DNA of 64,000 nt from Clostridia bacterium (GTDB taxonomy: Bacteria; Bacillota; Clostridia; TANB77; CAG-508), in NCBI GenBank assembly GCA_029258515.1, contig JARHYK010000002.1, positions 19,476-83,475 on the forward strand, written 5' to 3'. Position numbers and translations under genes: made by a program. Positions 1 through 52,546 of this stretch are shown here, in pieces (the stretch's first letter is position 1; every line of letters starts with the position of its first letter). The notes beneath the pieces are model-generated. The model saw only the letters and a list, made by a program, of their open reading frames with translations, was not told the origin of the DNA and ran no database searches.

Positions 1-161
1 ATGCTAATATAAAAGCTGCAAAAGAAGTTGGAGCTTTAATAGCTAAAAGAGCAAAAGATTCTAAAATTGAAGAAGTAGTATTTGACCGTGGTGGATATCT
101 ATATCACGGAGTAGTTAAAGAATTAGCAGAAGCTGCAAGAGAAGGCGGATTAAAATTCTAA
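1..161 (+). CDS. rplR: 50S ribosomal protein L18, C-terminal fragment (truncated by window start; frame 3)
   Basis: Translation from nt 3 gives ...[30 protein letters not shown], the conserved L18 C-terminus. Stop TAA at 159-161. Immediately upstream of rpsE, as in the spc operon. Confidence 0.8.
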
Positions 162-203
162 TTATATAACCTTAAAAATAAAAGAAGGAGGAAAGAAAAC
201 CAA

Positions 204-689
204 ATGGAAGAAAGAAACGAATTAAAAGAGAAAGTTGTTGCTATTAACAGAGTTGCAAAAGTTGTTAAAGGTGGTAGAACTTTCAGATTTAGTGCAGTTG
301 TAGTTGTTGGTGACGAAAATGGACATGTTGGTGTAGGTAACGGTAAAGCAGCAGAAGTTCCAGATGCAATCAAAAAAGCTATTGATGAAGCTAAGAAAAA
401 TTTAATAACAGTTCCTGTTGTTGATACAACAGTACCACATGAATATGTTGGAACATTCGGAAGTGCGAAAGTTATGTTAAAACCAGCAGCTGTTGGTACT
501 GGAGTTATAGCAGGAGGAAGTGTTAGACCAGTATTAGAATTAGCAGGATATAAAGATATAAGAACAAAAGTTATCGGAACAAATAATCCAAGAAACGTAG
601 TTTATGCTACATTAGAAGGATTAAAAGCTATGCAAACAGTTGAACAAGTAGCTAAAAAAAGAGGTAAAAAAGTAGAAGACATATTGTAG
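204..689 (+). CDS. rpsE: 30S ribosomal protein S5
   Basis: 161-aa ORF with the S5 motifs (VVKGGRxFRFSA..., [10 protein letters not shown]). RBS GGAGG lies upstream. Operon context rplR-rpsE-rplO. Confidence 0.95.
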
Positions 690-47691: not shown

Positions 47692-49728
<2,037 letters not shown>

Positions 49729-49737
49729 GAGAAAAAT

Positions 49738-49980
49738 ATGGAAGAAAAATATACATTTGAAATGATGTGGGAAGATTTGAATAATGGATATCAAATATAT
49801 TTTACGTATGTTAGAAATAGGTATTTGTTATTTAAAACAGCACAAAATTGCTATACACAAAAATTATTATCTGATTCTCATAAAAATCCACAGCCTAAAA
49901 TGTCAATGATTACATTAAAAAGAGTTAAAGAAATGTTTCCTTTTATGGAGAATATTGAATTTAAAGTAATAAATGATTGA
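49738..49980 (+). CDS. hypothetical 80-aa protein
   Basis: RBS AGGAGAAAAATATG. No recognisable motif. Confidence 0.4.
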   Translation: MEEKYTFEMMWEDLNNGYQIYFTYVRNRYLLFKTAQNCYTQKLLSDSHKNPQPKMSMITLKRVKEMFPFMENIEFKVIND

Positions 49981-50075
49981 ATTTTATGTAAATATATGAT
50001 ATAATTAAGGTGTAGCAATTAACAAACAGTACAAAGACCTCAAAATAAAATTAAATTGAGGAAGAAAGGAAAAAA

Positions 50076-50243
50076 ATGGATAAAGTATGTGAATTATGTG
50101 GTGGAAAGTGCAGAAGAAAGGACAATTTAGAACAACAACGAGAAGTAAGAAAAATGATTAAAGATAATGGATTATTAAATTATGGAACACCAAATACTTG
50201 CGTTAAGCCTGAAAATGGATCATCAAAATGTCCATTTGACTGA
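50076..50243 (+). CDS. small Cys-rich protein (55 aa; CxxC...C...C-P-F), paralog of the next ORF. Not in the ORF track
   Basis: MDKVCELCGGKCRRKDNLEQQREVRKMIKDNGLLNYGTPNTCVKPENGSSKCPFD*. RBS GAGGAAGAAAGGA lies upstream. A strong terminator follows. Confidence 0.45.
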   Translation: MDKVCELCGGKCRRKDNLEQQREVRKMIKDNGLLNYGTPNTCVKPENGSSKCPFD

Positions 50244-50255
50244 TAATTAATCTTA

Positions 50256-50281
50256 CAGGGTGTAATGTAACACCCTGTTTT
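50256..50281 (+). terminator. Rho-independent terminator
   Basis: cagggtgt-aatgta-acaccctgtttt: a perfect 8-bp GC-rich stem. Confidence 0.6.
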
Positions 50282-50317
50282 CAGTAGTTATTAGGAAAAG
50301 GTGAAAGGGGAATAATA

Positions 50318-50503
50318 ATGACTAAAATTTGTTATTATTGTCGTACTTCAATAACAGATGATCAAGGAAATGTTGATATCAGAAAATACGATAATTTAAA
50401 AGATAAGTTAGATGATCATTTTCAAGCTAGAGGGGAAACTATGGGAGAATGTAATCCTCCGTGTGCTCGTGATAAGATATGTCCATTTAAGCAGAGAATA
50501 TAA
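50318..50503 (+). CDS. small Cys-rich protein (61 aa; CxxC...C..PC...CPF), paralog of the 50076 ORF
   Basis: MTKICYYCRTSITDDQGNVDIRKYDNLKDKLDDHFQARGETMGECNPPCARDKICPFKQRI*. RBS AAAGGTGAAAGGGG. Own terminator. Confidence 0.5.
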   Translation: MTKICYYCRTSITDDQGNVDIRKYDNLKDKLDDHFQARGETMGECNPPCARDKICPFKQRI

Positions 50504-50522
50504 TATGTTCTCTGTTTTTTTT
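50492..50522 (+). terminator. Rho-independent terminator overlapping the stop codon of the second Cys-rich ORF
   Basis: cagagaa-tataatatg-ttctctgtttttttt. Confidence 0.6.
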
Positions 50523-50591
50523 GTAAATACTTGATTTATATATGTGATTTTGTTAAAATTGGTATTGAAAATAAAAAAAGGTGGTATAGAA

Positions 50592-51446
50592 ATGGCAATA
50601 ATTATAAATGGGAAAGATTTGGCTAAAAAAACAAAAGAAAACTTAAAAGTAGAAGTAGATGAATTAAAAGAAAAAGGAATAATTCCTAAATTAGCTGTTA
50701 TTATGGTTGGAGATAATGCAGCATCTAAAATTTATGTGAGAAATAAAAGCAAGGCTTGTGATATGGTAGGAGTTCAGTATGAAGAGTTTTTATTAGGTGA
50801 TAATATTGCACAGGAGGAATTAATTAAATTAATAGAAAAATTAAATGAAGATGATTCAATAAATGGAATTTTACTACAAAGCCCAATTCCAAGAAATTTA
50901 GATATAAATGAGGCTTTTAGAACAATTGATTATAGAAAAGATGTGGATGGTTTTCATCCAATAAATGTTGGAAAATTATCAATAGGTCAAGATACATTTG
51001 TTTCTTGTACTCCATATGGTGTAATGAGAATGTTTGAAGAATATAATATTGACTTGAGTGGAAAAAATGTTGTAATATTAGGTAGAAGTAATATTGTGGG
51101 AAAACCATTACTACAATGTTGCTTAAATAAAAATGCAACAGTTACTATATGCCATTCTAAAACAGTAAATATCAAAGAAATAACTAGAAAAGCAGATGTT
51201 TTAATATCAGCAATAGGAAAACCATGTTTTGTAACAGAGGATATGGTAAAAGATGATGTTGTTGTAATAGATGTAGGGATTAATAGATTAGAAACAGGAA
51301 AAGTTGTGGGGGATGTTGATTTTGAAAATGTTTCTAAAAAAGCAAGCTATATTACACCAGTTCCAGGGGGAGTTGGACCTATGACAATAGCAATGCTTAT
51401 GAATAATCTAGTAAAGGCAACAAAAGAGCAAAAAAAATTAATATAG
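50592..51446 (+). CDS. folD: bifunctional methylenetetrahydrofolate dehydrogenase/cyclohydrolase (start at MAIIINGKD)
   Basis: Conserved FolD N-terminus and the ...PVPGGVGPMT... motif. RBS GGTGGT lies upstream of the ATG at 50592. Confidence 0.9.
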   Translation: MAIIINGKDLAKKTKENLKVEVDELKEKGIIPKLAVIMVGDNAASKIYVRNKSKACDMVGVQYEEFLLGDNIAQEELIKLIEKLNEDDSINGILLQSPIPRNLDINEAFRTIDYRKDVDGFHPINVGKLSIGQDTFVSCTPYGVMRMFEEYNIDLSGKNVVILGRSNIVGKPLLQCCLNKNATVTICHSKTVNIKEITRKADVLISAIGKPCFVTEDMVKDDVVVIDVGINRLETGKVVGDVDFENVSKKASYITPVPGGVGPMTIAMLMNNLVKATKEQKKLI

Positions 51447-52429: not shown

Positions 52430-52546
52430 TTAGCAACATCCATTTCTATTACCACCGCAACAGCAACATATTAAAAGGATAAGGATTAATAAACTGCAGC
52501 AATCATCACCAAAACCGAAACAACCACAACCTCTATTTTCTGGCAT
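52430..52546 (-). CDS. YjcZ-like small Cys-rich sporulation peptide (38 aa; not in the ORF track)
   Basis: The minus strand encodes [48 protein letters not shown] lies 9 nt upstream. A terminator lies downstream. The Gly/Cys-rich ends flanking a hydrophobic core resemble the YjcZ family. Confidence 0.5.
   Translation of the reverse strand: MPENRGCGCFGFGDDCCSLLILILLICCCCGGNRNGCC

Follow-up and report, generated by a model that had tools for sequence, protein, structure and literature searches.

ORF1 and ORF2, two small cysteine-rich open reading frames between orf80 and folD in a Clostridia bacterium: a putative micro-protein cassette with a possible tandem duplicate

Layout of the locus between orf80 and folD

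The stretch of DNA considered here (hereafter the window) comprises 64,000 nucleotides from a Clostridia bacterium (GTDB lineage Bacteria; Bacillota; Clostridia; TANB77; CAG-508; assembly GCA_029258515.1, contig JARHYK010000002.1, positions 19,476 to 83,475 of the forward strand) and has a base composition of 27% GC. Between two of its genes, orf80 and folD, lie two small open reading frames (ORFs), ORF1 (55 amino acids) and ORF2 (61 amino acids), each of which encodes five cysteines. Comparison with related loci indicates that ORF1 is a real, fast-evolving and lineage-restricted micro-protein gene, and that it founds a tiny orphan family of four distinct sequences in three lineages, whereas ORF2 appears to be a singleton, seen in this genome only among the collections searched. 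An initial annotation, made from the letters alone, had described the two ORFs as a tandem pair of paralogous small Cys-rich proteins, each with its own ribosome binding site and terminator, and had suggested that they could be zinc-ribbon regulators or spore components. The two Cys-rich ORFs, the sequences quoted for them and their coordinates were confirmed, as was the absence of ORF1 from the ORF track, its 55 amino acids falling under the 60-amino-acid default of the ORF tool. The surrounding genes are of the housekeeping kind (ligA, folD, dprA, a HAD hydrolase, a prepilin peptidase, pepP, efp and rpsB). The features of the region are listed below in their order along the window.

47722-49728, ligA, which opens the gene order of the region
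49738-49980, plus strand, orf80, encoding an 80-amino-acid conserved hypothetical protein, directly after ligA
49977-50005, plus strand, cassette promoter of the sigma-A type (TTGAAT, 17-nucleotide spacer, extended -10 element TGaTATAAT), starting at the orf80 stop codon
50038-50061, plus strand, hairpin in the 5′ untranslated region (5′UTR), CCTCAA-N12-TTGAGG, followed by an invariant GAGG[AC]AGAAAGG that contains the Shine-Dalgarno (SD) sequence
50065-50069, plus strand, SD sequence of ORF1, AAAGG, 6-7 nucleotides ahead of the ATG
50076-50243, plus strand, ORF1, 55 amino acids
50255-50278, plus strand, inter-ORF hairpin (hairpin 1), a perfect 9-bp stem ACAGGGTGT/ACACCCTGT with a 6-nucleotide loop and a tail of 3-4 U
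50304-50311, plus strand, SD sequence of ORF2, AAAGGGGA, 6-7 nucleotides ahead of the ATG
50318-50503, plus strand, ORF2, 61 amino acids
50489-50524, plus strand, canonical intrinsic terminator with a 13-pair stem (50489-50517), a 3-nucleotide loop and U8
50531-50559, plus strand, promoter-like site of folD (TTGATT-17-TGtTAAAAT), also present in the closest relative, locus L086
50592-51446, folD, on the same strand as ORF1 and ORF2, with dprA as the next gene

The cassette promoter is close to the sigma-70/sigma-A consensus, which it matches at 10 of 12 positions, with the TG present, in a consensus scan. It is kept in L086 and also in L091, where it lies in another genomic context and reads TTGACA-17-TATAAT. 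Since folD has a separate promoter-like site beyond the terminator, the region from the cassette promoter to that terminator can be regarded as a unit of its own. The ribosome binding sites attributed to each ORF are indeed in place, and the perfect hairpin described between them is real; it is found as a single copy within the window and, together with an outer stem (50240-50294), reaches -23.7 kcal/mol (z -5.6). As to the proposed terminators, the one after ORF2 is sound: it overlaps the ORF2 stop codon (50501-50503), and the last five codons of ORF2 form part of its 5′ arm and loop. A terminator after ORF1 is doubtful, as hairpin 1 carries a U tail of just 3-4 residues and was not called as a terminator by the consensus scan. 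No usable promoter was found between ORF1 and ORF2; the sole promoter-like match there (50301-50328) overlaps the start codon of ORF2 and therefore cannot serve it. Because hairpin 1 is U-poor and no usable promoter precedes ORF2, co-transcription is the more likely arrangement, and ORF1 and ORF2 probably constitute one operon (promoter, ORF1, leaky hairpin, ORF2, terminator) and not two units, hairpin 1 probably being a leaky terminator or a stabiliser inside that operon.

The five cysteines of ORF1 occupy residues 5, 8, 12, 42 and 52 of a basic, hydrophilic protein (isoelectric point 8.7), and those of ORF2 residues 5, 8, 45, 49 and 55 of a likewise hydrophilic one (isoelectric point 7.6). 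Such numbers of cysteines exceed what is expected from the proteome rate of 1.0%, derived from 39 long ORFs of the window (binomial P 2.5e-4 for ORF1 and 4e-4 for ORF2), and also what random AT-rich codons would give (P 0.016 and 0.025, respectively). The codon-usage log-likelihood is +0.46 bits per codon for ORF1 and +0.21 for ORF2, to be read against a mean of +0.60 (minimum +0.115) for the 39 long ORFs and a mean of -0.64 (maximum +0.094) for 32 out-of-frame shadow ORFs. Both proteins are most likely cytoplasmic and soluble, as predicted from their grand average of hydropathy of about -1 and from the lack of any hydrophobic stretch.

The ORF1 family and the history of the cassette

An exhaustive phmmer scan of 1.84 billion cluster representatives, with ORF1 and ORF2 concatenated into one query, returned two true relatives, both of ORF1: P0020 (55 amino acids, E 3e-6) and P0021 (68 amino acids, E 8e-4). 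A profile search with these three sequences added P0022 alone, a one-residue variant of P0020. In a word-indexed search of 5.8 billion clustered proteins, ORF1 and ORF2 each returned only themselves; neither was found in phage records, IMG/VR or JGI metagenome contigs, and a search of the window for further copies of either found none. Pfam and NCBIfam gave nothing above noise for ORF1, ORF2, P0020 and P0021, PHROGs and PADLOC had no match for ORF1 or ORF2, and a PDB sequence search with both gave nothing better than an E of 0.34.

P0020 is syntenic with ORF1, five metagenome contigs (L086-L090) showing the order ligA-orf80-P0020-folD-dprA. When the window is compared with L086, ORF1 is 47% identical at the protein level, compared with 87% for LigA, 95% for the orf80 product, 89% for FolD and 74% for DprA. 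Across ORF1, P0020 and P0021 all five cysteines and 12 other residues are invariant, in the pattern C-x2-C-x-G-K-C-x2-K-x-N-x2-Q-Q-x2-V-R-x3-K ... P-x2-C ... S-x-C. From this a family signature can be written as C-x2-C-x-G-K-C-x2-K-x-N-[LF]-x-Q-Q-x2-V-R ... P-x2-C ... C in a protein of about 55-68 amino acids. ORF1 conforms to it; ORF2 does not, as it is without GKC, QQ and VR. The proportions of nonsynonymous and synonymous differences (pN/pS, Nei-Gojobori) are 0.30/0.58, 0.33/0.70 and 0.31/0.80 for the three pairs, with one-sided Fisher p values for pN < pS of 0.008, 1e-4 and <1e-4, and the ratio of nonsynonymous to synonymous substitution rates (dN/dS) is 0.35 for ORF1 against 0.04-0.23 for the flanking genes. 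The syntenic orthologue, the invariant cysteines and the finding of pN < pS in every pair thus mark ORF1 as a genuine gene. It is under purifying selection that is much weaker than that on its neighbours and that is focused on the cysteines and one helix. The comparison with relatives that the initial annotation had proposed as a check, looking for conservation and purifying selection, therefore turned out well for ORF1, with its three homologues; ORF2, for which it found no relative, is treated below.

The distribution of conserved residues also bears on the idea that ORF1 and ORF2 are precursors of ribosomally synthesized and post-translationally modified peptides (RiPPs) of a sacti-, ranthi- or lanthipeptide-like kind. 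Small, Cys-rich, fast-evolving peptides in tandem are what such precursors look like; however, conservation in the family is highest in the Cys knuckle at the N-terminus and in the helix, a pattern unlike a leader/core split, the neighbours are housekeeping genes with no radical-SAM, LanM/LanB, protease or transporter gene nearby, and neither SCIFF nor any other NCBIfam family was matched. We consider a RiPP origin highly improbable.

Several further candidates for homologues were rejected. Matches of ORF1 by tblastn in Bacillaceae (85 loci, about 2.5 kb upstream of folD, E down to 0.005) fall in the C-terminus of AccB, the biotin carboxyl carrier protein, with no cysteine aligned, and are thus due to chance. 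Two further proteins returned by the phmmer scan, P0018 and P0019, are spurious: both are long and built of tandem repeats, and one of the matches spans the artificial ORF1-ORF2 junction of the query. Among plasmids, tblastn yielded a 34% match (E = 5) in 971 enterobacterial plasmids, located inside a PAPS-reductase-family protein and with the cysteines unaligned.

Promoter, 5′UTR, ORF and terminator are conserved together at three loci, namely the window, L086 and L091. The last of these, which carries P0021, is non-syntenic and away from folD. A 5′UTR stem is predicted at all three (CCTCAA/TTGAGG in the window at 50038-50061, CCTTCAT/ATGGAGG in L086 at about 2353-2376, CCTCAT/ATGAGG in L091 at about 752-774), its 3′ arm consisting of an SD-like GAGG. 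The changes between the copies are compensated, an A-U pair having become U-A in L091 and a paired insertion being present in L086; at -5.5 to -7.6 kcal/mol the stem is a weak one, and it is compared here in three sequences only. Such a hairpin might make the transcript more stable or adjust its translation. In both L086 and L091 the lone small gene is immediately followed by a terminator, to which the one behind ORF2 in the window corresponds. The conserved promoter also has a bearing on the spore components of the initial annotation. Spore coats and exosporia contain small Cys-rich proteins, and the lineage is Clostridium-like; nevertheless, that promoter is of the housekeeping sigma-A type and not of a sporulation type, and neither small acid-soluble spore proteins (SASPs) nor coat or other spore families were matched in Pfam or NCBIfam. 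A spore-associated role is accordingly very unlikely, and the suggestion found no support.

An ORF, a hairpin, a second ORF and a terminator in a row immediately ahead of folD, and in its orientation, might suggest a control of folD-dprA in which the hairpins act as attenuators and the ORFs as regulatory leader peptides. Yet purifying selection acts on the amino-acid sequence and not on translation alone, and folD has its own conserved promoter-like site past the terminator. Moreover, L091 carries the cassette at a site remote from folD, relatives exist in which folD directly follows orf80 without a cassette, and an Rfam scan of 49600-50700 found no match (a ZTP or THF riboswitch ahead of folD was considered, and gave no signal). 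Known leader peptides are also far shorter than 55-61 amino acids. There is thus hardly any probability left for attenuation as the role of these ORFs.

L086 has one small gene at the site, without ORF2, which fits either a gain of ORF2 in the window lineage or its loss in L086. In more distant relatives (L009, L094-L096) the cassette is absent and orf80 abuts folD, and inspection of the junction downstream of orf80 in L094-L100 revealed no further copies. The lack of a cassette after orf80 in these more distant relatives places its arrival at this site in the ancestor shared by the lineages of the window and of L086. The cassette may also travel with mobile DNA. At L091, a fragment of a tyrosine recombinase of the phage-integrase family (3-599, minus strand) adjoins P0021, on a contig of only 1.2 kb.

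The 3′ junction of orf80 (49980-50592 in the window) is a rearrangement hot spot among the relatives: in L007 an adhE-like gene of 872 amino acids and a gene of 262 amino acids are inserted after orf80, and synteny breaks there at a His_Phos_1 gene in L002 and L004 and at argS in L097. In L097, ligA is called as two ORFs of 374 and 263 amino acids (298-2297), which may reflect a frameshift, a pseudogene or an assembly error. The orf80 product itself has no Pfam match, yet it is 72-95% identical and always found after ligA in all relatives examined, with a dN/dS of 0.04; it is thus strongly constrained and may be functionally linked to DNA ligase. Another small gene lies further downstream, where an ORF of 38 amino acids (52430-52546, minus strand), convergent with dprA, encodes 10 cysteines and a hydrophobic core behind a perfect SD sequence, GAAAGGAGGT. 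It is 84-87% identical and in the same position in L086, L087 and L007, far better kept than ORF1, and has no match in Pfam or NCBIfam. It is probably a real, as yet unannotated gene for a membrane-associated Cys-rich peptide.

ORF2 and its relation to ORF1

ORF2 has a layout in common with ORF1, consisting of M-x-K-[VI]-C-x2-C at residues 1-8 and C-x9-C-P-F at the C-terminus, and both also carry a D-N-L motif ahead of the predicted helix, whose position is similar in the two (18-31 in ORF1, 21-36 in ORF2). Statistical support for a common origin is weak. ORF1 and ORF2 match one another by BLASTP at E 2.6. A global protein alignment as good as that of ORF2 to ORF1 was reached by 27 of 3000 shuffles, while alignments of ORF2 to P0020 or P0021 were not significant; at the DNA level, the unit-versus-unit alignment was reached by 2 of 1000 dinucleotide shuffles and by 65 of 2000 codon shuffles. 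The shared terminal Cys layout noticed in the initial annotation is therefore real, and the paralogy that had been read into it is not established by these comparisons, which are suggestive only. A diverged tandem duplicate of ORF1 would be the most economical origin of ORF2, and we give it roughly even odds. Given the orthology of the window terminator to those of the one-gene cassettes (L086, L091), the segment separating ORF1 from the cassette's ancestral terminator contains hairpin 1 and ORF2.

Homologues of ORF2 were sought in the 5.8 billion clustered proteins, the 1.84 billion representatives, JGI metagenome contigs, IMG/VR and sets of phages and plasmids, and none was found. In the initial annotation, the absence of any conserved relative together with the absence of a translation signal had been named as the outcome that would speak against such a gene; ORF2 shows the first of these, and its codon usage and ribosome binding site are its sole support. 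It may consequently be asked whether only ORF1 is a gene, with ORF2 an ORF that arose by chance or very recently, may go untranslated, and lies in DNA inserted ahead of the terminator. This would agree with the lack of homologues in any collection, with the one small gene that the closest relative has at this site, with the 3′ end of ORF2 running into a pre-existing terminator, and with its codon score of +0.21, low by the standard of real genes. Nevertheless, at 27% GC chance seldom yields an ORF of 61 codons (a length attained, by our own arithmetic from base composition, by about 0.5% of the segments between stops), ORF2 begins with an ATG behind a well-spaced, G-rich SD sequence, its codon score exceeds those of all 32 shadow ORFs, and it encodes five cysteines of which the terminal ones are laid out as in ORF1. 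A non-genic ORF2 is in our judgement unlikely, although of the alternatives discussed here it has to be taken the most seriously.

A putative metal-binding role and comparison with known systems

Taken together, these observations can be read as follows: the region is a self-contained unit inserted between orf80 and folD in the chromosome of a gut Clostridium-like bacterium, in which ORF1 would encode a metal-binding micro-protein and ORF2 a diverged tandem duplicate of it. We hold this reading tentatively, as a whole at slightly less than an even chance. The sigma-A promoter would drive an mRNA with a short conserved 5′ hairpin and a strong SD sequence, encoding ORF1 and then, probably via read-through of the U-poor hairpin, ORF2, and ending at one canonical terminator. 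The cysteines of ORF1 (C5-x2-C8-x3-C12, and C42 and C52 in the C-terminal tail) would chelate a metal, with Zn(II) as the default guess and Fe or an Fe-S cluster as possible variants. Such a site would hold the two ends of the chain together around a basic helix in its middle (roughly residues 16-31), whose conserved face (K15, N17, Q20, Q21, V24, R25, K29) might bind a protein or nucleic-acid partner. ORF2 would be a lineage-specific second copy that has kept the terminal Cys scaffold (C5, C8, C45, C55-P-F), has a different middle, and is wedged between ORF1 and the ancestral terminator of the cassette. Both proteins would most likely be cytoplasmic micro-proteins that bind a metal, probably Zn.

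The zinc-ribbon family proposed in the initial annotation finds no support. Each protein has one CxxC (ORF2 also has a CxxxC), the other Cys pair is C-x9/10-C, and no Pfam or NCBIfam family was matched. The AlphaFold check suggested there for a ribbon fold yielded models of low confidence, too weak to weigh for or against any fold, in which a single central helix but no ribbon is seen: AlphaFold2 with a four-sequence ORF1 alignment had a mean predicted local distance difference test score (pLDDT) of 52 with a helix at 18-31; modelled by itself, ORF2 reached a pLDDT of 63 and showed two tiny strands in addition to a helix at 21-36. A Foldseek search with the latter, low-confidence model against the PDB gave nothing at E <= 0.001.

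A number of points weigh against the metal-binding, two-gene reading. We infer metal binding purely from the Cys pattern, and the low-confidence AlphaFold models (pLDDT 52 and 63) show no metal-site geometry; note that AlphaFold2 is unreliable for metal-site geometry in Cys micro-proteins (PMC11241148). About one third of the predicted archaeal Cys4 micro-proteins are zinc-free (PMC11241148). The conservation statistics of the ORF1 family are thin, with just 3-4 distinct sequences. As regards ORF2, its comparison with the ORF1-family profile by hhalign (E 0.021 over 17 C-terminal columns) is not significant, the family hidden Markov model scores it at 1.5 bits, a value matched by 13% of composition-preserving shuffles (p 0.13), and, as no homologue was found in any collection, its translation is putative only.

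Instead of structural zinc, the cysteines could hold an Fe-S cluster or act as redox-active thiols in rubredoxin- or small ferredoxin-like proteins. The host is probably an anaerobe, as its closest relatives are uncultured Clostridium/Clostridia known as host-associated metagenome-assembled genomes (human gut, Hadza, rabbit); in size (55-61 amino acids) and in the CxxC near the N-terminus (residues 5-8) the proteins are similar to rubredoxin; and five invariant cysteines are one beyond the need of a Zn site. In addition, the C-x2-C-x3-C of ORF1 together with its Cys-Pro recalls the CP motifs of ferredoxins. Against this, the rubredoxin and Fer4 families of Pfam gave no match even at E <= 10, the spacing is unlike both CxxCxxCxxxCP and CxxCG...CPxCG, C12 is missing from ORF2, and the CP is not kept at the last Cys of P0021. 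An Fe-S or redox protein is quite unlikely, though distinctly more probable than the RiPP, leader-peptide or spore alternatives. More speculatively, and with a probability that we place a little lower still, the cassette could be an evolutionarily mobile, highly expressed "conflict" gene. Its Cys-clamped product would then change several times faster than the neighbouring proteins through targeting a quickly changing partner, for example a phage or mobile-element protein or the enzyme of a competitor, and ORF2 would have arisen within this lineage, either de novo or through duplication with runaway divergence, borrowing the promoter and terminator of its neighbour.

If the preferred reading, a unit encoding a metal-binding ORF1 product and a diverged duplicate, were confirmed, ORF1 would define a new bacterial family of Cys-rich micro-proteins confined to a handful of uncultured Clostridium lineages from the gut. 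The relatives with zero, one or two copies at one chromosomal site offer a natural experiment, and the locus lends itself to studying the origin, duplication and divergence of very small genes, and to testing whether metal can be bound by Cys patterns that differ from paired CxxC motifs. It has no bearing on a long-standing open question, and the uncultured host limits its practical value.

Among known systems, CsfB/Gin (PF10764) and Fin are Cys4 zinc-binding anti-sigma factors of Firmicutes, of about 50-80 amino acids, which bind a larger partner. ORF1 resembles them as a small Cys protein whose conserved helix face suggests partner binding. However, these factors have two CxxC pairs and sporulation promoters, whereas here no Pfam match was found and the promoter is of the sigma-A type. 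More broadly, neither ORF1 nor ORF2 showed the features tested for SCIFF/ranthipeptide, other RiPP, rubredoxin, Gin/CsfB or SASP profiles. The similarity to rubredoxin (PF00301) lies in the length, in a first CxxC located around residues 5-9, in a Cys-Pro further along the chain and in the probable anaerobe host, and the difference in the absence of a second CPxCG knuckle and of a Pfam match at E <= 10, and in a middle part predicted to be helical and not beta-sheet. As in morons, a self-contained unit of promoter, UTR, ORF and terminator is present or absent between conserved neighbours, with one copy next to a tyrosine recombinase fragment; unlike morons, it sits in a chromosomal housekeeping context and not in a prophage, and has no matches in PHROGs, phage records or IMG/VR.

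The closest parallel may be drawn with one-domain zinc-finger micro-proteins, which are likewise below 70 amino acids, cytoplasmic and hydrophilic, often lineage-restricted, and have at least four cysteines as their sole obvious feature, so that their functions must be worked out one by one. The C(P)XCG zinc-finger micro-proteins HVO_2753 and HVO_0758 of Haloferax volcanii contain two C(P)XCG knuckles (PMC6562870, PMC10716476, PMC11241148). Differently from C(P)XCG proteins, ORF1 and ORF2 have one CxxC (CxxCxxxC in ORF1) and two distant single cysteines 10 residues apart; they show no sequence similarity to HVO_2753 or HVO_0758, belong to a bacterial host with AT-rich DNA, and their metal binding is predicted only. 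The orphan family founded by ORF1 is thus new, yet of a familiar kind, that of the prokaryotic Cys-rich micro-proteins, and not a new category.

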